DNA of 64,000 nt, from positions 6,385-70,384 of IMG/VR virus record IMGVR_UViG_3300046012_000806. One strand, written 5' to 3'. Position numbers and translations under genes: made by a program. The number at the start of each line of letters is the position of its first letter. The first letter of the stretch is position 1. The DNA comes from a virus. The notes under the pieces are model-generated. The model saw only the letters and a list, made by a program, of their open reading frames with translations, was not told where the DNA came from and made no database searches. Shown here in pieces: positions 13,245-34,078 of this stretch.

Positions 13245-13964
13245 GGTCTTCTCCTTACTGTCGTTGGCTTGCTTAGTCTCTTTTTTCGGCCCGTTCTTTT
13301 TTTCGTCAAACTGGCCGACATTCCAATTCACCTTCATGCCATTCGGCAGTGAATCTCCGACCACAACGTCTGTTCCGGCGCGGCCGTCCTTCACTATTGC
13401 GACGTGGTTGCCGCGAATGTTGCGCATCACGCCGTCATACCGCTGGCCTTTGTAAGTGCCGGACGTCATGTCCGCGTCGTAACGGTATGACGACGAAAGT
13501 TCATGCTGGCGCTCATTTTCAATCTCTTCGATCATCGCCCCGTCCCAAACGGTGAGCGGCGCATCAAGGTAAGGGTCATTGAACTCAACCTTGTCTCCGA
13601 CCGACCCGACAACATCGTCCCTCGGATGGTCAGCGGCGAAACTGGGCGTGTGCCGCAGCAGCAGCGGCTTACCGACAAACGTGGCCGCGCCCTTGCGCAA
13701 TTCTTCCGGATCACGGAAAAGTTGGTAAACCTTTTCCGGATCAAGGCCCAGGCTCTCGCTGTCCGGGATTTCTTTGCCATAATAAGGGTTCACGCAGGCC
13801 TTTGAGATATGCGACAAGGCCACGCGCAAGTGGCCGTCCTCGTCCTTTGAGCGCACAGAGTTGCGGTCCATGGCCACGCAGTCGTTGGCGGCTCCATCAA
13901 CGAGATGAAGGTCGCCAGACTTATACATGAACCTGTTGTCCTCTTCCTCATCGAGCATCGTCAT
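12360..13964 (-). CDS. Prohead protease-scaffold (DUF2213) with N-terminal RFxYxxGDL leader peptide
   Basis: Start reassigned to ATG 13964 (ATGA overlap with the upstream stop); VNPYYGKEI, ELSSSY, GNHVAIVxxGRAG; acidic helical C-terminus. Confidence 0.85.
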   Translation of the reverse strand: MTMLDEEEDNRFMYKSGDLHLVDGAANDCVAMDRNSVRSKDEDGHLRVALSHISKACVNPYYGKEIPDSESLGLDPEKVYQLFRDPEELRKGAATFVGKPLLLRHTPSFAADHPRDDVVGSVGDKVEFNDPYLDAPLTVWDGAMIEEIENERQHELSSSYRYDADMTSGTYKGQRYDGVMRNIRGNHVAIVKDGRAGTDVVVGDSLPNGMKVNWNVGQFDEKKNGPKKETKQANDSKEKTMTKHTNPVLSRHAAITQGALMVYLGPKLAKDSSIDLRAILKGTTARNFKTVRPTLVIDLKKATAGKLAKDASLDDLNLLLDKLSPSDEAMDEEEPPKSAKKNEDDDAEELNDISFDDGREEELRSILEGKCQPEEIDRVLELMRSGDGDAKDEMADDLPEAATDEDEDAEKEKMKMKGMVNKTAMDAALRKNRDETIAEMKRQFADRTEAQNLVRPIIGEVTIAMDTAEKIYVAALDHSGVKHKGVHPSALRPMVELVVNQLKARPANRQPLAADSGNALTEFAKKHNIDRLSV

Positions 13965-15217
13965 TGAATCAACTCGCAATTGATTATTCTTTTTTTGGCA
14001 TCGATCCCTGTGATTTTCAACTTTGAGCCACGTTGAATGACGATCTCAAATTCATCATCATCGATGTCGGCAGCCTTGATGGCGGCAGCTTTCTGCCCCT
14101 TTTTTATATTGACTTCAAGAATCAAAGACCCATCCCCTTTGGCGAAGGATTTCGCGACCGACTTTGAGGTCGATACGCTAATGAAGCCATTGTCTTGAAA
14201 TTCGTCTCCAATTTTTGCATTCTTGAGAAACTCTTCGGCCATGTCGCCGCTCATTCCCCGATACGTGGACACATCTTTTAACATGGATGATCGATTAAGC
14301 CACTCTTCTATATTTTTTGTCGATACATAGCTTTTGGCGCCTGATTGGTGCTCGCCTGTCTTGCGAAGGTGGCCATTCATTTTTGAGAATTGCGTGCCCT
14401 TGTAATTCACTATTGAAAATATCTCGCCATCGCCTTGTGGCTCCGGGCGATTGGCCGCGACTTCTTTCAGAGCCTTTCCGTGCGGGGAGGCGAAGAACTT
14501 TTCATAACGCTTCTGTTCGCGGGTTTTTTTACCGCCAGAGCCTTTCCCGAACTCGCCATTGTCGGCGCGAGGGTGCTTGCTTTCATCAAACTCACCTGCG
14601 TCGTTGGCCAGCTTTCCTTTGATGATCTTCTCAACGGCAGGATGCATGGGCGCCGGCAAGGCGTCCGGCAAGAACCATCCATGGTCAGAGTGTTCGTTGT
14701 TCAACTTGATCTCAGGCAATGGACCGTGCAGTGGGCAATGAAAGGTTGAAAACTTCATTCCGTTCGGCGTCGTCACTTCGTTGGGGTCTGAAAAGCTCGC
14801 GTCGCCATCAATTGGCGCCCAGCCGATTTCTTCTCGTGATTCGCGCAGCGCGCCTTGCGCAGGCGTTTCGTCCGGCTCAACACCGCCGCCCGGCAGCGCC
14901 CAGTGGCCGACGTAATTGTCCTTGCCCTCTTCGCCAGCTCGCTTGAGCAACAAGACGCGGCCGTCGGGGGCGACGTACATGACGCCTGCAGCGCGCTTGG
15001 CGGGGGCCGCATCGTCTTCCGCATGTTCCGGCTCCGCCGCTTCTTCACGTAGCCACTTCGTGATCAGCATGCCGAGTTGCGACCAGTCCGGGCCGCTCAT
15101 GTCGTGCGACACAAACTCCTTGCCGACCTTCTGCGAAACGCCAGCACGCTTCGCGAATGCCGGGTTATGGGCCACAGCTTCCATGAAACGGTGTTGCTTC
15201 GCAGATTTGGTCGGCAC
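13961..15217 (-). CDS. Nudix hydrolase - ADP-ribosyltransferase fusion, probably head-associated
   Basis: Canonical Nudix box GGVEPDETPAQGALRESREEIG; KHPRADNGEF tag; VIP2-like R-S-E motifs TYRG, GFISVSTS, EFE. Confidence 0.85.
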   Translation of the reverse strand: MPTKSAKQHRFMEAVAHNPAFAKRAGVSQKVGKEFVSHDMSGPDWSQLGMLITKWLREEAAEPEHAEDDAAPAKRAAGVMYVAPDGRVLLLKRAGEEGKDNYVGHWALPGGGVEPDETPAQGALRESREEIGWAPIDGDASFSDPNEVTTPNGMKFSTFHCPLHGPLPEIKLNNEHSDHGWFLPDALPAPMHPAVEKIIKGKLANDAGEFDESKHPRADNGEFGKGSGGKKTREQKRYEKFFASPHGKALKEVAANRPEPQGDGEIFSIVNYKGTQFSKMNGHLRKTGEHQSGAKSYVSTKNIEEWLNRSSMLKDVSTYRGMSGDMAEEFLKNAKIGDEFQDNGFISVSTSKSVAKSFAKGDGSLILEVNIKKGQKAAAIKAADIDDDEFEIVIQRGSKLKITGIDAKKRIINCELIQ

Positions 15218-19764: not shown

Positions 19765-20289
19765 TTATTTATAAACAAAGTTGATAGCCACACCCGTTGC
19801 GGCGTTTGTGTTGTCGTTGTCGGCTAAACCGCCCGTCAGGCAAAAGCCAATGCCGGCGCTGAAGCTCATGCCGACATTGAGCGGCAAGACGAAGCCCGCG
19901 CCTGCCGTGGAAGCTGGCACGGGATACGTCTGCAAGACCGCATCGCTATTGCATGTCGGCGCGGTCGCCTTATCATACAATTTCAGATAGTAGAGCGTGG
20001 CCGTCGTGTTAATAACGGCCAGCGCGTAGACGTTGCCGGCAGACGCTTTGACGTTCGTTGCGTTTGTGGACGCCGCCGACAGGTAATGCGCTGGCGTCGC
20101 GCCGCCGCTCGTAGCTCCAGAGCCGGAAACCACCAGCGGATTGGCCGCCGTCCCGCAAGGGCCAACGCCGACACAGATCAGCCCGACGCCGGGCACCGCC
20201 TTGCCCGCGCCGTTGGGATAATCCTGGGCGAGCGACGGAGAGGCCGACGCCCAAACGAGCGCCAGCAGAAAGAGCGAAAGCAATTTCAT
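19765..20289 (-). CDS. Exported head-spike/fibre base-like protein
   Basis: Start MKLLSLF at 20289 (signal ending SLA); TNATNVKASAG..YLKLYDKATAPT..FSAGI. Confidence 0.5.
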   Translation of the reverse strand: MKLLSLFLLALVWASASPSLAQDYPNGAGKAVPGVGLICVGVGPCGTAANPLVVSGSGATSGGATPAHYLSAASTNATNVKASAGNVYALAVINTTATLYYLKLYDKATAPTCNSDAVLQTYPVPASTAGAGFVLPLNVGMSFSAGIGFCLTGGLADNDNTNAATGVAINFVYK

Positions 20290-21086
20290 GAAAACCCCAC
20301 CACGACGGGCCGTGATACGCATCGGCAGTTGATCAATTCCCCAGGGAAGATGTGCCGGCCCTCATGCGGGTCAAACCACCCTTCGCTGCATTTGTACCGC
20401 GTCTTCGCCATGCCGGCCGCGAGATGAGTCGGGCGCGGCTCCTTGCCGGCCGTCGAATGAACCCATATCGCTTCCGCAATGCCGACTTCCTGATAACGCG
20501 CGTTGATCAGCGCAGACGTGGCCTTGTTGTTCTGGTCGCGGGCGATTAGCGCGGCGCGACGCTTGGTGACGCCGAATTGCTTGCGCAGGTCGTCGGACAA
20601 TTGGCCGAGATCGCGGCCGGTCTGCACGGAGCGCATCACCATGCCTTCAACTTCACCAAGAAACTTCTGCGGAATTGACTTGATCAGCGCGACGTTCTGG
20701 TTGACTGTGGCGTTGATAATGTCGCGTTGCGCGCGGGTCATTGCGAAGTTGTTGAGCGTGAAACCGCCATCGCGCAAAATCTTGGCCAGTTGCGCGTCGG
20801 TGCGCTTCGAAATCGACATCGCGAAATGCTTCGCCATCTTCTTGCTCATGTCGCCGAAGCGCCGTTGCCACTGGCGCGTCAGCCTATCAATCACAGCCTT
20901 CAATGCTGAAGCCGGAAGTTCATCTTGCGCAATCACGGGCTCATTGGCGTTGTAGGCTGACCGCACCCAATGCATGACTGACTTGAACATTTCATTGACG
21001 AGCGCCTTGAGCTTCTTACGGTACACCGCTTCAATGCCCGCGTTCGGGCGCACTGTGCCGAGCGATTTAAGGGTGACGGCGATCAC
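20286..21086 (-). CDS. Head morphogenesis protein (MuF / SPP1 gp7 family)
   Basis: Start reassigned to GTG 21086; RAALIARDQ, WxHS..PRPTH, PGELINCRC. Confidence 0.85.
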   Translation of the reverse strand: MIAVTLKSLGTVRPNAGIEAVYRKKLKALVNEMFKSVMHWVRSAYNANEPVIAQDELPASALKAVIDRLTRQWQRRFGDMSKKMAKHFAMSISKRTDAQLAKILRDGGFTLNNFAMTRAQRDIINATVNQNVALIKSIPQKFLGEVEGMVMRSVQTGRDLGQLSDDLRKQFGVTKRRAALIARDQNNKATSALINARYQEVGIAEAIWVHSTAGKEPRPTHLAAGMAKTRYKCSEGWFDPHEGRHIFPGELINCRCVSRPVVVGFS

Positions 21087-21098
21087 AGAATTTCGCCC

Positions 21099-21127
21099 TT
21101 TCCAAGCGCCGGACGAAGGCGCATAAT
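21099..21127 (+). promoter_or_regulatory. Promoter for the antisense mini-gene
   Basis: TTTCCA-N17-CATAAT, a variant of the phage TTTCTT-N17-CATAAT motif. Confidence 0.55.
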
Positions 21128-21160
21128 GGCCGGCCGTCCATGGCGAAGAGGAGAGCGAAG

Positions 21161-21319
21161 ATGAGCGACGAAAAAGAGCCCAAGCCTGAAGCGACAAAAG
21201 AAGAAAGCGAGCAGGCCGCTGCAAGAGAGCGCTTTGAATACAAGGAGGGCGACCTTCAAATAATCAAGGTCGGAGAGCCCAAGCCCCCGGCTGATAAAGA
21301 AAAAGAAGAAGATCACTGA
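21161..21319 (+). CDS. 52-aa acidic peptide carrying RFEYKEGDL (candidate ART inhibitor)
   Basis: Not in ORF track. GAGGAG RBS; MSDEKEPKPEATKEESEQAAARERFEYKEGDLQIIKVGEPKPPADKEKEEDH; its stop overlaps the portal stop convergently. Confidence 0.7.
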   Translation: MSDEKEPKPEATKEESEQAAARERFEYKEGDLQIIKVGEPKPPADKEKEEDH

Positions 21320-24300
21320 ACCAATTCACATTTCATGTGACTTTTCTCGAAGTCGAACGACACGACCCGCAGCATCGATCCGCACTGCACGATGATTTCG
21401 TTTTCACCGTCAGAGTCGTCATGAGCGCGAATTGCTGCGGCCTTTTGTCCTTTCTTCATGGCGATGTCCATTGTCATTCCATCATACCCATCTTCGCCCC
21501 AATTTTTGGCAAAATCTGGGCTTGTTGTGGTGCTGATGAACCCACGGTCCATGAATATTGATCCTTCAAACGCCATCGAGCGCAGGAACTTTGCGTATGC
21601 GCCTTTGATTCCTCGATGGACCGTTACATCAATAGGCAGTTCCGCTCTGTCCAGCCAGGCCTCTACATACTTCGTTTCATGGCTGTGCTTGCCAGAATGA
21701 CGAAGTTTGTCGTTCATGCTTATATAGCCAGAACCTTTATAAAAACTGATGGCGCTGGCCTCTTCCTGCGTGGGAGTGGGCCGCGCTTTGGCGATCTCTT
21801 TGCGGGTGGCGACATGAACGGGGACTGCGGGTTTCGGCTGCAGGTGGTCTGGAATCTGCTCCATAGTATTCTTGACGCCGAGGCTTTCAAACTTCGCTTT
21901 GTCGCCGTCCAGGAGCGCTTGCAGCGCTTCGCTGCCTTGACCCTTCTTCGTCTGGAAGCTGGGCGTTTGCAGCGTCCAGCTTCCAGACTTTTCTAGGGCG
22001 AGGAGCGATTTGCCCTTTTGCAGGATCGTCGGGTCTTCACCATTGGCTGAAGACAATAAGGTGAACCCGGCATTCAACATTGTGGCATAAATGTGAGCTT
22101 TTGCCGGTTCGACTTTTGCCGGTTCGGCTTTTGCCGGTTCGGCTTTTGCCGGTTCGGCTTTTGCCGGCAGGTGCTTTTCTATGACCGCTTTGGCTTGATC
22201 AAAGAACTTTTGCTTATCCGCGCCTTTCAGCTGCGTGACGAGCTTCTTGAGTTGATCAAGACTCTTGGGTCCTTTTTCCCCGGCCGCATTGTTTATGGCC
22301 GTGTGCAAGTCTTGATAGATGTTTTTCTTCACTTCATTGGGCAATTCAACGATGCCCTTGAACAACTGGCCCTTTTGCGTGATCGGGGCGATACCACCGC
22401 CAGACCCTTTCGAGAATTGACCGCCCTTGTCGCGCGGGTGCTTGCTTTCCTCGAACTTGGCCTCGTCGAGCGCCCACAGCAGTTCATGAAAGTCAGCGTC
22501 CGAAGCGAGAAAAGGGACCACGCTGTCCTCAGCTGCCTCCGGACCGCCAACTCCTGTTTGGACGACGTGCACGACTTTCATAGTCTTAGTTTTCTTTTTA
22601 CCTGATAACCTGTCTTTGTACGTCACCGACTCTTTGCTAACTTTCAATACGTTGAACTTGCCGCTTGAAGTTAACTCTCTGTCGGTATCAATCCCGATGC
22701 TGAACCCATGGCCCACCCCGCGCGGGTGAATCTTGTTTTCGCTACGAGACCAAAACGCAGGCACCGTGGCGTGCTCGTCTTCGCGTCGAGAGCCTTCCAT
22801 GGCCCGTGTTGGCAGCATACGTGCGCCAGGATCAACTTTAATAAGGACGCCGCCAGCATACGTCATGGCTGAATCTTGATCCGCCGAGAATGCCACAGGG
22901 CCGCCAAGCTCAAAAGAGCCGCCTTCCTTAACTGAAAAGGACTTACACCCACGATATGTGGTCTCTGAAGTTTTCGGCGCGTGCTGTAAGGTTTCAAAGT
23001 ATCCAGCAGTATCATGGGATACTTTGCGTAAATCATCATGACTAAGCCCGCTCGCATTAAGCAATTCCTGGATGTTGGGATTAGATGCCAACTCGCTTAT
23101 CTGCGTCCCCTTGCGCGTCTGATTGACGATTTCTCTTATGGCCAATGACTTCTTGTTATCGGCAGCATACAAGCTTACGATATCAGCGGCGCTCTTAAAA
23201 GACGGATTGGAAGCGTACTCCTCGTGCAATTCCTTTGCTAATTTCTTATTGTCTTCGTAGGATAGCTGGTCAATGCCTCGATGCGACGCAAACTCATTTA
23301 ATTTTGTTGTCCCAGGGCCTTCGCCAAATTGACCATTCTTTGCTCGTGGGTGTTTCGCTTCGTCAAAATCACCAATATCATCAAAAGACAAATCGTCGCT
23401 TAACCGCGAAAAAGGGATCACGCTGTCTTCAGCTGCCTCCGGACCGCCAGCGTCCTCGTCCTGCGGCTGCGGCCGTCCGCCTTCCGGCTCAAGGCCGGTT
23501 TCTTCCTCGCCTTGTAAGTCCGGAACGTTCTCCACGTCAATGGACGAGTAAGCCGAGTTCTCGTCAGCCGCCACGGCGGCGCGCACCTCTTCCGGAGCGA
23601 GAACGCCTTTGTCGATATAAACGCCGGCCGTGTCGGCCTCTTGCTTCCGGACCGCCGCGCGCTTTTCCTCGTCCAATGACCAAAGCGGCTCCCACCGCCA
23701 GACAATGTCGTCGTCGATGTCGCCCCACAGCGTCATCATCAAGACTTTGGCGAGCTTGGTTATGTTCGGAGTGCCGATGCGCTCCTGCTCTGATTTGATC
23801 GTGTCGTAGAAGGCGCGAATTTCCCCGTCCGACGAAGCGTTCAGGCCTGATGGCGTAATGCCGAACAATTTGACGAGCGGGATGCCCGCGATGCCGGCCA
23901 TTTGCTCCTGGGCCTGCGCCTGCAGTTTGTCCAGCGAACCGAGCGGCGCAGAGACGTTGGTGAAGCCCTCGCTGTCCTTATCCACCATGAACAAGCCGAG
24001 GTTGTTGCGCGCATCATTGTAAAACGCACCGCGCGCTCTCAACAACTCCATTCCGCCAGGCTCCATCATTGCGTCCATTTGAATGGACATCACCATGGTC
24101 GAAAAGTTGCTGATCAAGCTCGACACAGACTGTCGCGTCTCAAGCCAGTTCTGCACATAAGGGAAAAGCAACTGCGTGAGCGAAACACCACCGAACAAAT
24201 ACTGCGGCTTCAGCATGTCCGGAACCGGACGCGAGTTGAACGACAAAAGGCGCGAGGAGTTCACCTGATTGGACAAAATGAACCAAGTTTGCGGCCGGTA

Positions 24301-25038
24301 AAAGTCGTCAGCCAGCGGATCGATGGCGTTGTACTGATTTGGGTACATCCATATCGGCTCAATGCACCGCAGAGCTTTCAGCGGATCGCCCTTTTTAATT
24401 TTCGCACGCAGCAACCGGTCACCGAGCGGGGCGGTCAGTTCATCGCCCTTCGCGCCGGTATCGATCAAGATGTGACCAATGCCGAAGAAGTTATCAAGCT
24501 CGTAGCTGCGGCGAAAGGTCTCTTGAACATTCAGCCGATCAAACTCGTCCATGAGAGCATTGATCTTGTCCGTCTTGCTTTCGTCTTCAGACTTGCTGAC
24601 GAACTTGCCCCATTCCCGCGTCATCTCATTCGCGAGAATGGAGCTTGGTCGGCGGAACTCCGGAATTTGCGCGAGGTCGCTGAGCAACGCATAACCCATG
24701 AAGCCATAGCCGCCCCAGGCGTGTTGCGCTGCGAAATTTCTGACGCTGACGATTTGCGAATCAGCGGCCAACATCGGCTTGCCGTGCCCGGCCGGAATCA
24801 CACCGGGCGACGGCGCAGGGATGCTCTCCTGAAAAACCAGAGAGGGGCGTCCGCCCTCCGCCCCTGGTAAACGTACCAGCGGGGCGCGCGAGGCCCTCAG
24901 CCGCCCAGCGGCCTCGGAGAAAACCCGTGCCCGCTCCAGGTTCGCGGCCCTGAGCTCGCTGTCCGTCTTGGCGCGCACCTGCGGCGGGGGCGTGAGGCCC
25001 CAGTTCGCCAGCTTGTGCAGCGCCGTCCGCAGGCTCAT
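21313..25038 (-). CDS. Portal protein (DUF1073 type) fused to two tandem ART-like domains
   Basis: Follows TerL; IPLVKLFGITPSGLNASSDGE portal motif; ART1 TYRG/AFS/DRE; ART2 VHRG/GFISTT/ENE; start reassigned to ATG 25038. Confidence 0.85.
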   Translation of the reverse strand: MSLRTALHKLANWGLTPPPQVRAKTDSELRAANLERARVFSEAAGRLRASRAPLVRLPGAEGGRPSLVFQESIPAPSPGVIPAGHGKPMLAADSQIVSVRNFAAQHAWGGYGFMGYALLSDLAQIPEFRRPSSILANEMTREWGKFVSKSEDESKTDKINALMDEFDRLNVQETFRRSYELDNFFGIGHILIDTGAKGDELTAPLGDRLLRAKIKKGDPLKALRCIEPIWMYPNQYNAIDPLADDFYRPQTWFILSNQVNSSRLLSFNSRPVPDMLKPQYLFGGVSLTQLLFPYVQNWLETRQSVSSLISNFSTMVMSIQMDAMMEPGGMELLRARGAFYNDARNNLGLFMVDKDSEGFTNVSAPLGSLDKLQAQAQEQMAGIAGIPLVKLFGITPSGLNASSDGEIRAFYDTIKSEQERIGTPNITKLAKVLMMTLWGDIDDDIVWRWEPLWSLDEEKRAAVRKQEADTAGVYIDKGVLAPEEVRAAVAADENSAYSSIDVENVPDLQGEEETGLEPEGGRPQPQDEDAGGPEAAEDSVIPFSRLSDDLSFDDIGDFDEAKHPRAKNGQFGEGPGTTKLNEFASHRGIDQLSYEDNKKLAKELHEEYASNPSFKSAADIVSLYAADNKKSLAIREIVNQTRKGTQISELASNPNIQELLNASGLSHDDLRKVSHDTAGYFETLQHAPKTSETTYRGCKSFSVKEGGSFELGGPVAFSADQDSAMTYAGGVLIKVDPGARMLPTRAMEGSRREDEHATVPAFWSRSENKIHPRGVGHGFSIGIDTDRELTSSGKFNVLKVSKESVTYKDRLSGKKKTKTMKVVHVVQTGVGGPEAAEDSVVPFLASDADFHELLWALDEAKFEESKHPRDKGGQFSKGSGGGIAPITQKGQLFKGIVELPNEVKKNIYQDLHTAINNAAGEKGPKSLDQLKKLVTQLKGADKQKFFDQAKAVIEKHLPAKAEPAKAEPAKAEPAKVEPAKAHIYATMLNAGFTLLSSANGEDPTILQKGKSLLALEKSGSWTLQTPSFQTKKGQGSEALQALLDGDKAKFESLGVKNTMEQIPDHLQPKPAVPVHVATRKEIAKARPTPTQEEASAISFYKGSGYISMNDKLRHSGKHSHETKYVEAWLDRAELPIDVTVHRGIKGAYAKFLRSMAFEGSIFMDRGFISTTTSPDFAKNWGEDGYDGMTMDIAMKKGQKAAAIRAHDDSDGENEIIVQCGSMLRVVSFDFEKSHMKCELVQ
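22097..22167. repeat. 15-bp tandem repeat (~4.7 copies) encoding a PAKAE linker
   Basis: gcttttgccggttcg units. Confidence 0.9.
22510..23449. repeat. 40-bp direct repeats (22510-22549, 23410-23449) flanking the ART1 cassette
   Basis: 38/40 identical, exactly 900 bp apart, encode GGPEAAEDSV(I/V)PF. Confidence 0.9.
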
Positions 25039-25274
25039 CGGCCGCGCAAGCTCCGCGTCATGCTGAAAACACCAACCGCACACGTGATCAAAATCAAGGC
25101 TCCAAGCAAGACGTTAATCATTTCCGCTCACCCCTTCCCAAAAAAGGGCGCGACGTTCACAAGCTGTTACTTGTCGCGCCCAAAGTTGCGGGAGGAAACG
25201 CCCAGGTTGGGCAGCGTCCGACGGAAATCCGCCGAACAATTTTCCGGCGCGCAAGCGGCCGGGTCCCTGAAAGG

Positions 25275-26711
25275 TCACCGCCCCAGTGACCTGAACACAG
25301 AATGATAATCGTTCGCGTGCGCCACCAAGGCGCTGTAATCAAGCTTCTTCGTTTCGGTCAAATGGTTGAAGGCCCGCGAAGAAGCGTCAATCTGGTCGTC
25401 GTGCTTGCCGAAAGGAAAGTTGCGCAACTCTTGCACGTAAGCGTTGTTCCATTCAGCGCGCACCATGCCGACATTGCCGACGTTCATCTGAGAAGCGAAC
25501 GGTTCGGCCCGCGTCACCTTGTCTCCGGATTCCAGCGAAGACACGACGCGGAATCCGCTCAGGGCCTTGGTCAAATAAAACACCGCCGACTTGCCGGCGG
25601 CACCAGGGTCTTGCGGCAGCGAGATTGTGACGCTCTTGCCGTCTCGCTGCGCATTAGTGACGACCATGCGCTCAACCGCTTCTGGCGACCCTTGCAGCGT
25701 GTCCACGTCCTCGACGATGTACTTCCCGTTCCCGGTGACGCCCATCAACAAGCCGACCGTCGGGTCGCCATCATTGTGCGTCGCGCCGAGATCGTAAGCC
25801 CGCACCTTGCGCTTCACATCACGCGCCGAAGCGTCATAGCTCAGTGAGCGCTCGTCAAAGAACCCGCCTTCCCCCGGCGTGGGCCGCTGCTGATACTGAC
25901 CGCTGAACGTGTACGGCATGGCCTTTTCCATGCGCCGCAGTTCCGCGACCGAATGCTTATCCGCCCACAATGCCGTTCCATCGGGTTGGAGCGCCGGCAG
26001 ACAAATGAGCTTCCAGCTTTCCCCGGACCCTCCAGCAAGCAGCCAGCCGGCTAAGTCCTCTTCGTGCAAACGCTGCATGATCAATATGATTGGCGTCTTG
26101 GGGTCGTTGGTGCGGGACTGAAGGGTGCTTTTGTACCATTCAATCACGCCGTTGCGGACCTTGTCGCTGCGCGCTTCTGTCGGCTTGATCGGATCGTCGA
26201 TTATGATCGCGCCGCCGAAGCCTTCACGCATTGCGCCCGCGCCGAAGCCTGTGATCGTGCCTTCTGTGGACGAAGCGTAAACGCCCCCGCCATTGAGTAT
26301 GTGCCACTTGTGGCGAGCGCTGCTGGTCGTATTGATCATCGTTTCCGGAAAGACGCCATGATAAAATTCCGAACGCACCATCTCGCGCGTTTCCCAAGAA
26401 TTTTGCTCCGCCAATTCGCTGGAATACGAAGTCATGATGAAGTTTGAATGCCTTGATTTGCCGAGCGACCAAGCCACAAAGCTCTTGCACAGATGGGTCT
26501 TGCTGTAACGCGGCGGGATATTTATGATCAATCTTTTGCATTGACCATTGAACACTTCTTCCAAAGCGTTGCAAATCAACTCATGATGCGCCGCGCGCTG
26601 CCACAATGCTCCGGTCAAGTGGATGAACATGTAGCGCGTGAAATAATAAAGGTTGTTGCTCGCCATCCTTTGATGGACGTAAAGCTGCTTGAGGTCGTGA
26701 GCCACAGTCAC
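25275..26711 (-). CDS. terL: Terminase large subunit
   Basis: NIPPRYSKT Walker A, IIIDDP Walker B, QRLHEEDLAG, YDLG, HDDQIDA. Confidence 0.95.
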   Translation of the reverse strand: MTVAHDLKQLYVHQRMASNNLYYFTRYMFIHLTGALWQRAAHHELICNALEEVFNGQCKRLIINIPPRYSKTHLCKSFVAWSLGKSRHSNFIMTSYSSELAEQNSWETREMVRSEFYHGVFPETMINTTSSARHKWHILNGGGVYASSTEGTITGFGAGAMREGFGGAIIIDDPIKPTEARSDKVRNGVIEWYKSTLQSRTNDPKTPIILIMQRLHEEDLAGWLLAGGSGESWKLICLPALQPDGTALWADKHSVAELRRMEKAMPYTFSGQYQQRPTPGEGGFFDERSLSYDASARDVKRKVRAYDLGATHNDGDPTVGLLMGVTGNGKYIVEDVDTLQGSPEAVERMVVTNAQRDGKSVTISLPQDPGAAGKSAVFYLTKALSGFRVVSSLESGDKVTRAEPFASQMNVGNVGMVRAEWNNAYVQELRNFPFGKHDDQIDASSRAFNHLTETKKLDYSALVAHANDYHSVFRSLGR

Positions 26712-32673: not shown

Positions 32674-33726
32674 ATGACCAACGAATACGACGAAGCCACC
32701 CAAAAGGCCATGGACAAGATCGAGAAGCTCATGCGGCTCGCTTCGTCCAACCCCAACGAGGCCGAAGCCGCCAGTGCCCTCAGCAAGGCGCAAGAGCTTT
32801 TGGCCGCGTACAATCTTGACCTCTCAGCCATCGAGGCCAACTCCGGCGCGAGCGGCAAGCGGCTGGACGCTATGGTGACGGGCGGGATGCACCGTTACCA
32901 ACGCTCCCTCATGAAGTCAATTGCGCAGCTCAATTTCTGCATGTACTGGACTATGAAAGTTCCGGTCAAGGCCGGTTCTGCGCAGGCCAAGCGCGGTCGC
33001 CAGTTCACCCACGAGCACCGGCTCGTGGGCCGGCAGGTGAACGTCATTCAAACGCGCAACATGGCCGATTACCTGAACTCCACGATTGAGCGTTTGTGCC
33101 GCGACAAGTTGCGGGACGATGGCTTGAGTCCTCAGAGCCAGTTCTATTCGGCCTGGGCCATTGCCTTCCGCGAAGGCATCGCCGACCGGGTGATTGAAAA
33201 GCTCGTGCGCCGTCGGCGCGCAAACGTGGACGAGGAGGCGCAAAAGGCGGCGGAAGCCGCGCGGGCCGCTTCTGCGGCGGGCACGTCCTCCGCCACCGGG
33301 CTCACACTCGCTTCCCTGGTCAAGCGCGAAGAGGCCGCCAATTACGACTTCCTCCATGGGGAAGGCGCATGGGCGCGGCGCGAGGCCGAATGGGCAAGCA
33401 GCGAAAAGCTCTGGGCAGAGCGCCGCGTGCAGGAGGCCGCAGCCCGCGCGGCGGCGGAAAAGAGCTATGCCGAATGGGCCGTTGCGCACCCGGCCGAAGC
33501 TGCCCAGGCGGAAGCCGAACGCGCCGCCGCCGCCCGCAAGGCTGAGAAGGCCGAAGCCGCGAAGGCCGCGCGCCGCTCCGGCCGGCGTTACAGCTTCCGC
33601 CAAACGGGCGAGGAGTTGCGCCGCAACTCCGGCGGTTACGCGGCCGGCTACGAAGCCGGCAAGCACATCTCCATAGACCCGCAGACCAGCAACCAGAAAT
33701 CAGGAGCGCTCTCCGATGGCCGATGA
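32674..33726 (+). CDS. DUF2786-domain protein
   Basis: KIEKLMRLA..NEAEAASALSKAQELL; AFREG; GYAAG. Confidence 0.75.
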   Translation: MTNEYDEATQKAMDKIEKLMRLASSNPNEAEAASALSKAQELLAAYNLDLSAIEANSGASGKRLDAMVTGGMHRYQRSLMKSIAQLNFCMYWTMKVPVKAGSAQAKRGRQFTHEHRLVGRQVNVIQTRNMADYLNSTIERLCRDKLRDDGLSPQSQFYSAWAIAFREGIADRVIEKLVRRRRANVDEEAQKAAEAARAASAAGTSSATGLTLASLVKREEAANYDFLHGEGAWARREAEWASSEKLWAERRVQEAAARAAAEKSYAEWAVAHPAEAAQAEAERAAAARKAEKAEAAKAARRSGRRYSFRQTGEELRRNSGGYAAGYEAGKHISIDPQTSNQKSGALSDGR

Positions 33727-34078
33727 TCGTTTCATGTATGACGCGGGCGACTTATCAATCGTTTACGGCAAGCCGCGCGCCGCGCGCAACGCTAGGAGCA
33801 AACCAATGAGTGAACGCAATCAAATGTTCATCAACTTTGACCAATGGGTTTGCATGGCAAGCTCTTGGCTGACGCGCCATCCGCAATATGACAAAACGGA
33901 ATTTCGCGCAATATGTTTTGATTCGCGCGGGCGCATTTGCGCGTGCGGCAAGGACTTCATGCGGGCGCGCGACGAAAATGCATTCCCTGTCATGTGGGTC
34001 TGGCCGGACCAAGTCGCAGAATTTCTGGCCAGGTCTGAGGTGTTTTTTGATGAAGTTGTTAGGGTTGGCCCCCGATGA
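33716..34078 (+). CDS. Hypothetical protein with N-terminal RFMYDAGDL module and internal start at 33806
   Basis: AGGAG RBS before both 33716 and 33806. Confidence 0.6.
   Translation: MADDRFMYDAGDLSIVYGKPRAARNARSKPMSERNQMFINFDQWVCMASSWLTRHPQYDKTEFRAICFDSRGRICACGKDFMRARDENAFPVMWVWPDQVAEFLARSEVFFDEVVRVGPR

Follow-up and report, generated by a model that had tools for sequence, protein, structure and literature searches.

A candidate mini-gene for an inhibitor peptide opposite a portal-borne ADP-ribosyltransferase of a soil phage

The mini-ORF and its place in the late operon

We analysed a mini-open reading frame (mini-ORF) that lies opposite the end of a portal gene carrying an ADP-ribosyltransferase (ART) domain, in a soil phage represented by IMG/VR virus record IMGVR_UViG_3300046012_000806. 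The mini-ORF contains a short peptide motif that occurs three times in the phage genome and is predicted to bind the ART. The stretch of DNA analysed, which we refer to as the window, is 64 kb of the 70,384-nucleotide (nt) record, and the record is rated complete and "linear". The sole sequencing run with the genome was a soil-metagenome DNA run, which is a possible source of it. The minus strand is the strand of every long ORF between ~268 and 27466, a block that includes genes for the small and large terminase, the portal-ART fusion, a MuF-like head protein, a Nudix-ART protein and a DUF2213 prohead protease; the right half codes for a UvrD-like helicase, Pol III alpha, an SNF2 helicase and further replication functions. 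The sole Phage_integrase match scored 17.3 bits, below the cut-off, and contained two internal stops, and serine recombinases were not searched for; on its sequence, the phage shows no sign of a lysogenic lifestyle. The junction between the portal and MuF genes has the following features.

21161–21319, plus strand: mini-ORF of 52 amino acids, rich in K and E, with a central hairpin-like motif; ATG at 21161, with an alternative ATG at 21140 that gives a 59-amino-acid form (21140–21319)
21148–21153, plus strand: Shine-Dalgarno sequence GAGGAG, 7 nt 5' of ATG 21161
21099–21127, plus strand: sigma-70-like hexamers TTTCCA (21099–21104) and CATAAT (21122–21127), separated by N17, with 9 of 12 matches; candidate promoter
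21313–25083, minus strand: portal-ART fusion gene, 1256 amino acids, matching Phage_portal_3 (3.4e-76, residues 135–486) and ADPrib_exo_Tox (4.9e-13, residues 1095–1249)
21313–21831, minus strand: ART2, the C-terminal ART domain (R-S-ExE) of the portal fusion; ADPrib_exo_Tox, 4.9e-13
20286–21086, minus strand: MuF-like head protein gene, with its start placed at GTG 21086

The start of the MuF gene was put at GTG 21086 because the alignment of 80 relatives begins 3–14 residues after this codon. The portal stop and the MuF start are then 226 nt apart, and the plus-strand mini-ORF fills this gap. Among the 80 relatives, the portal–MuF distance ranges from ~0 to ~800 nt, and in the eight loci inspected the gap holds unrelated small ORFs on the same strand as the flanking genes. 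The TGA of the mini-ORF (21317–21319) and the stop of the portal-ART gene (21315–21313, minus strand) bring the two ORFs into a tail-to-tail overlap of 7 nt. An earlier note made from the DNA letters alone (the sequence-only reading) had described a plus-strand ORF of 52 amino acids inside a minus-strand operon, with a GAGGAG ribosome-binding site and a stop overlapping that of the portal gene, and we found each of these as described. It had also called the ORF unlisted; this was mistaken, since the JGI/IMG protein collection already lists the 59-amino-acid form as a called gene. On the opposite strand, the −35-like hexamer overlaps a purine-rich stretch, G-G-A-A-A-G-G-G (21095–21104), that would be the MuF ribosome-binding site, and the start regions of the mini-gene and of MuF stand back to back within 75 nt.

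The openness of the mini-ORF is by itself no evidence beyond chance, because at least three minus-strand frames are likewise open across the portal–MuF gap. The Shine-Dalgarno sequence is a stronger signal: a strong six-nucleotide version precedes only 19 of the 743 ATGs that open ORFs of at least 50 amino acids in the window; ATG 21161 is among these 19, the majority of which are evident gene starts.

A peptide motif in three copies

At 21230–21265 the mini-ORF encodes the segment RFEYKEGDLQII, to which the sequence-only reading had drawn attention. Translated in six frames, the 70,384-nt genome contains the motif R-F-x-Y-x-x-G-D-L-x-[IL]-[IV] exactly three times, this segment being one of them. 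The motif did not occur in 200 codon-block shuffles or in 505,578 nt from 80 related loci, and a looser core pattern of it has an expectation of 0.035 occurrences. The repeat of this peptide motif is far beyond chance. The three copies, and the second ART domain of the genome, are located as follows.

21230–21265, plus strand: motif copy 1, R-F-E-Y-K-E-G-D-L-Q-I-I, in the mini-ORF; predicted ART2-binding segment
13854–13964, minus strand: 37-residue leader of the DUF2213 prohead protease, with motif copy 2 at 13934–13899
33716–33805, plus strand: in-frame leader of 30 codons ahead of the conserved start (ATG 33806), with motif copy 3 at 33728–33763
13961–14497, minus strand: ART3, the ART domain of the Nudix-ART protein; paralogue of ART2

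A BLASTP comparison of the mini-protein with the protease, made as a single pair, aligned 7 identical residues out of 13 with an E value of 5e-4, and a search of the phage's own genome with the mini-protein recovered copy 3 (E 0.005) at the head of a 120-amino-acid ORF of the early region. DNA similarity among the copies ends at the edges of the motif, and within it there are synonymous codon differences at four of the six invariant residues: across the copies, Arg is encoded by CGC/AGG/CGT, Phe by TTT/TTC/TTC, Tyr by TAC/TAT/TAT and Leu by CTT/CTT/TTA. When the motif was written as a degenerate DNA pattern (with CGN codons only for Arg and CTN codons only for Leu), it was found in 13 stretches of IMG/VR, all in unrelated contexts, for example inside capsid-like proteins or in closed frames; a search of a phage DNA collection gave no match. 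The motif is thus conserved as a peptide, and the plus-strand frame of the mini-ORF is therefore the meaningful one.

This conservation speaks against another candidate for the gene in the portal–MuF gap, a minus-strand ORF of 77 amino acids (21316–21083), rich in F and L, that might encode a translationally coupled small membrane protein. This ORF shares a GTGA with each of its neighbours, its GTG overlapping the portal stop and its TGA the GTG start of MuF, and in relatives that have a gap, small same-strand ORFs occupy it. Codon statistics are ambiguous between the two frames. In synonymous codon use, the plus-strand ORF scored −0.047 (windows of 59 codons from long genes of the phage gave 0.135 ± 0.092), and the 77-amino-acid frame scored 0.10; by the full codon score, the plus-strand ORF (0.215) resembled real genes (0.23 ± 0.09). 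We nevertheless consider it highly improbable that the 77-amino-acid ORF is the real gene of the gap. Its exact sequence is absent from a 15-billion protein collection and has no PHROG match, with no search made for homologues; the pyrimidine-rich strand is open by composition; and the synonymous changes that keep the plus-strand motif would be non-synonymous in the minus-strand frame. The F/L-rich ORF at 21083–21316 is probably a composition artefact of lying antisense to a K/E-rich ORF.

ART2 and ART3 are 39% identical (68/174, E 2e-29), and both end in C-E-L-[VI]-Q. Residues R73, S100, E143 and E145 are invariant between them, and ART2 has the R, S-T-T and E-x-E motifs of the family; its relative in the PDB is 8za7_B (E 5.5e-4). 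ART2 homologues were absent from IMG/VR when sought by patterns, and none of near length was found at E ≤ 1e-5. PF03496 matches in the genome are confined to ART2 and ART3, and none of the five closest complete relatives has this domain. Copies 1 and 2 of the motif each lie at most 90 nt from the stop of an ExE-type ART, ART2 and ART3 respectively, so that the pairing of the motif with both ARTs is real. At copy 2, the ATG of the protease overlaps the stop of the Nudix-ART gene (ATGA) and the leader with the motif follows directly; the DUF2213 domain begins at residue 38, right after the 37-residue leader.

In many relatives, the region just ahead of the DUF2213 core, when translated in the frame of the protease, resembles the C-terminal part of a Nudix domain or of some other domain, suggesting that cargo is fused to the protease before the DUF2213 core, with putative continuity of the frame. 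Upstream of ART-like modules in this phage, a 73-nt stretch occurs three times (14531–14603, 22396–22468 and 23308–23380; 63–73% identical) and codes for a K-H-P-R...G-Q/E-F tag. This tag precedes each ART-like module, and a similar sequence, H-P-R-G-P-G-G-K-F, stands before the ART in related locus L030. Judging from the junctions of the relatives, a piece consisting of the tag, ART3, its stop and the motif leader appears to occupy the position where the relatives have a plain junction. Within the portal gene, two 40-nt direct repeats (22510–22549 and 23410–23449) that are 95% identical and exactly 900 nt apart bracket the first ART-like module, which is divergent and not PF03496-positive, and at least four tandem 15-nt units (22097–22171) coding for A-E-P-A-K repeats lie in the linker before ART2.

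The leader that carries copy 3 appears at the N-terminus of an early protein whose homologues lack it. In an alignment of 19 of the 33 non-self matches, 18 of the 19 homologues begin where this protein has M31, and the remaining one carries an extension of unrelated sequence; the 30 leader residues are thus a phage-specific addition. M31 (ATG 33806) has its own AGGAG. In AlphaFold models, both the protease leader (pLDDT, the predicted local distance difference test, ~30, versus >90 in the core) and the early-protein leader (pLDDT 46–58) were unstructured and undocked. Docking of the leaders in cis onto their own proteins was thus not seen, which argues against a role in cis and fits a motif that acts in trans. 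The 90-amino-acid core of the early protein (33806–34078, plus strand) belongs to an unnamed family with 33 other matches; W44, W51, C67, W94 and W96 are invariant, and C75 nearly so, in a 20-row alignment that includes this protein, and the gene is flanked by a DUF2786 gene on one side and by a topoisomerase-like gene (phrog_6247) on the other.

A predicted complex with ART2 and its interpretation

We predicted the structure of ART2 (172 amino acids, aligned with ART3) together with the 52-amino-acid peptide (aligned with the other two motif segments), a check that the sequence-only reading had itself put forward. The complex scored 0.85 in each of three runs, compared with 0.01 for the best of three controls, one of which had ART2 replaced. 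Of 80 solved complexes, 58 attained this mark, as did 2 of 110 mismatched pairs, counts that hold only roughly here because our own alignments were used. The runs shared at least 87% of their contacts, and the partner pLDDT was at least 65. On the peptide side, the predicted interface comprises residues 27–29 and 31–48 (numbered as in the 59-amino-acid form), which correspond to the motif and a few flanking residues. On the ART2 side, it comprises residues 32–44 (Y-K-G...N...L-R), 72–76 (H-R-G, with R73), 88–96, 100–102 (S-T-T) and 141/143/145 (ExE). The lowest-error pairs place peptide residues 38–43 against ART2 residues 92–96, a contact that looks like strand pairing, and F32 and Y34 against R73/G74/I75, S100/T101 and M121; R31 is in the interface list and absent from the 25 best pairs. 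The model supports binding of the peptide to ART2, with the predicted contact made through the motif and across the catalytic residues.

We favour the reading that the mini-ORF is a gene for a peptide that binds and inhibits ART2, and on the sequence and the models we give this reading, taken whole, a probability of roughly 0.55. The mini-gene would make a peptide of ~52 residues with charged, probably disordered flanks around the central hairpin-like motif. The motif would bind the ART2 of the portal that is encoded tail to tail with it, across the nicotinamide adenine dinucleotide (NAD)/active-site cleft, and the enzyme would be silent. Transcription would run from the mini-gene's own candidate promoter (21099–21127) to a hairpin at 21950–21998, independently of the late operon, and the peptide could exist earlier than the portal-ART or separately from it. 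On the prohead-protease leader, the motif would likewise silence the Nudix-ART made just upstream. Of the inhibitor proposed in the sequence-only reading, the part that gained from this analysis is the predicted binding of the motif at R73, S100–T102 and E143/E145; the parts that did not include a promoter of "phage consensus" type and the idea that the invariant Arg acts as a substrate mimic, which the position of R31 in the model neither favours nor disfavours.

The motif might instead be a general docking tag for a partner other than an ART, such as the scaffold, the portal or a host factor, with the mini-protein as packaged cargo or as a competitor. Consistent with this, the motif is carried by the prohead protease, a protein that has to get into the procapsid, and also by a protein unrelated to ARTs; its leaders are flexible and exposed, and relatives load cargo by fusion to the protease or portal. 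A docking tag is quite unlikely in our view, given the difference in complex score between ART2 (0.85), the one partner modelled, and the best control (0.01), including the control in which ART2 was replaced, and given that both PF03496 ARTs of the genome have a copy of the motif, two of the three in all, right beside them.

Under the inhibitor reading, the mini-gene would have a transcription unit of its own, the candidate end of which is the following feature.

21950–21998, plus strand: terminator-like hairpin (stem-loop 21950–21988) of 18 pairs, including 2 G-U, with a loop of 3, followed by TTTTCT

With G-U pairs allowed, a scan of both strands of the window gave no hairpin longer than this one. 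Its position is within the coding sequence of the portal-ART, 631 nt 3' of the mini-ORF stop, and it is terminator-like on the plus strand only: the predicted fold has −38.5 kcal/mol on the plus strand and −33.5 kcal/mol on the minus strand, where it is weaker because the G-U pairs become mismatches. A different terminator-like hairpin, of 11 pairs and a T-run, lies on the coding (minus) strand at 25579–25604, inside the large-terminase ORF. Hexamers upstream and a hairpin with T-run downstream are thus present on the same strand, as matches to consensus only, and would bound an RNA of ~860 nt that contains the mini-ORF and is antisense to all of ART2. Separate transcription and timing of the mini-gene are plausible. 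The sequence-only reading had further likened the hexamers to a promoter consensus of this phage. TTTCCA-N17-CATAAT is indeed present, but it is not recurrent: with up to two mismatches we found 6 matches compared with 3.36 ± 1.82 expected, and 11 of 100 shuffles reached 6.

The same signals raise the possibility that the main product is the antisense RNA itself (~21134 to ~21995), which would act on the ART2 part of the late portal mRNA and control its stability or translation, with the peptide being secondary. The candidate promoter and terminator do flank, on the other strand, the entire coding region of ART2. By contrast, the motif is conserved as a peptide while its codons change synonymously, which argues for translation, and we consider it very unlikely that the RNA is the main product. 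An antisense RNA is, however, compatible with the inhibitor peptide, and the two are not exclusive.

Several observations, together with the synonymous-codon scores given above, weigh against the inhibitor reading. The mini-protein is an orphan: it found itself alone among 5.8 billion clusters, and again itself alone among 1.84 billion representatives that were read exhaustively; it was not found in IMG/VR by peptide patterns, nor at the expected place or by motif in the 80 MuF-related loci. Promoter-like sites occur in the region at chance density (3 versus 2.3 ± 1.7 expected in 6.5 kb), so that position is the sole argument for the candidate promoter, and a second count of such sites likewise gave no excess (9 versus 7.0 ± 2.5 in shuffles). 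The relatives that carry ARTs, L074/L075 and L030, lack the motif. L074/L075 have a direct fusion of the ART with the protease, the ART standing in L074 (3831–5648) in front of the DUF2213 protease-scaffold; in L030 the portal-side ART ends a long upstream ORF (2–1597, with its 5' end off the locus) and is followed by other small same-strand ORFs. The third copy of the motif, which was not in the picture drawn by the sequence-only reading, adjoins no ART. The mini-gene is inverted relative to the arrangement at copy 2, and a search for flanking inverted repeats that might account for the inversion found weak pairs only and gave no explanation. Finally, the alignments behind the complex model had only 2 and 3 rows, and the interface positions are no better conserved between ART2 and ART3 (14/38) than positions elsewhere (54/134). 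We also observed that in L030 the first of the small ORFs, at 1582–1788, is a 68-amino-acid acidic ORF that overlaps the ART stop, and that three more small genes follow before MuF.

Some of these observations would also fit a mini-ORF that is an unexpressed relic, that is, an inverted and decaying peptide-coding piece of an ART cassette in a non-coding spacer, in which the Shine-Dalgarno sequence and hexamers are there by chance. Its orphan status, poor synonymous-codon score and promoter-like sites at chance density are consistent with a relic, as are its orientation opposite to copy 2 and the variation of the portal–MuF gap from ~0 to ~800 nt among the 80 relatives. Against this, the frame is intact from a Shine-Dalgarno-preceded ATG to the stop and keeps all six invariant residues of the motif, a strong Shine-Dalgarno sequence is rare (19/743 ATGs), and the strongest plus-strand terminator-like hairpin of the window lies downstream. 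We regard a relic as unlikely, and the mini-ORF as probably a real gene.

An extension of the inhibitor reading to all three copies is doubtful, but it would join them in a single scheme, in which the 12-residue hairpin motif serves as a portable "ART lock" that the phage uses in three ways. Expressed as a free peptide from a convergent promoter of its own, the lock would silence the twelve portal-borne ART2 domains in the producing cell. As a leader on the protease, ATGA-coupled to the Nudix-ART, it would silence that enzyme and also tether it non-covalently to the protease-scaffold, and the enzyme would thereby be packaged; the leader would then be cut at A-x-D sites inside the closed capsid, in the absence of NAD, and the enzymes would be armed for injection only. 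As a leader on the early protein, the lock would shut off the injected ARTs once the early genes are expressed.

Relation to known systems

Comparative genomics has established that phages encode ARTs as fusions to portal or MuF proteins, which are presumably packaged and then injected, and head-packaged ARTs are common in phages (Iyer et al., 2022, PMC9503650). The literature, to the extent that our sources cover it, leaves largely unaddressed how phages handle packaged ARTs during virion building, and among the papers listed by our searches none was seen to describe an inhibitor directed at the packaged ART of the phage itself. T4 Alt and other head-packaged phage ARTs of the Alt/VIP2 family are similar to those studied here in being ADPrib_exo_Tox-type ARTs in the head module; unlike here, no partner inhibitor is described for them in the available portion of PMC9503650. 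If the inhibitor reading is true, a peptide-sized molecule with no need of a folded domain inhibits the phage's own injected ART, and a defined 12-residue motif might inhibit Alt/VIP2-type ARTs. Reuse of the motif as a modular leader on the prohead protease would amount to a zymogen-like mechanism in which enzymes are armed inside the capsid, and an orphan antisense mini-ORF inside a late operon would prove able to be functional.

The closest likeness in gene arrangement is with MuF polymorphic toxins, in which, as here, an effector domain forms the C-terminus of a head-module protein and a small ORF without recognised domains lies beside the toxin-coding end. According to Jamet et al. (2017, PMC5576092), a small ORF taken as an immunity gene follows 89.4% of 191 MuF toxins, and these toxins are reported only in temperate phages. 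There are several differences. The carrier in this phage is the portal (and the Nudix protein) rather than MuF, and no integrase was found. The small ORF here converges on the toxin gene from the other strand and abuts its stop, whereas theirs is downstream; because of its strand, the mini-ORF falls outside the positional definition of a MuF-toxin immunity ORF. It also has only 52 residues and a single short motif, which recurs as an N-terminal leader on two other proteins.

Inhibition by occlusion of an active site has precedents. IapK neutralises Apk2 in this manner (PMC12226406). The precedent cited by the sequence-only reading was cited correctly: according to a review (PMC8120803), an N-terminal extension of Tri1 blocks the active site in Tre1, an R-S-E ART. 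The mini-protein would be similar to Tri1 if its short segment sits, as the model predicts, at an ART active site, here the R/S-T-T/ExE cleft. Tri1 in addition has a DraG-like ADP-ribosylhydrolase domain, whereas the mini-protein has no domain or similarity to anything searched; a DraG-like domain is ruled out in it because its 59-amino-acid form matches no Pfam family and because 52–59 amino acids are too short. Compared with these systems, what would be new here, if real, is the absence of any sign of lysogeny, the size of the peptide, its convergent arrangement with signals of its own, and a 12-residue motif reused in three proteins, one of which is the prohead protease.

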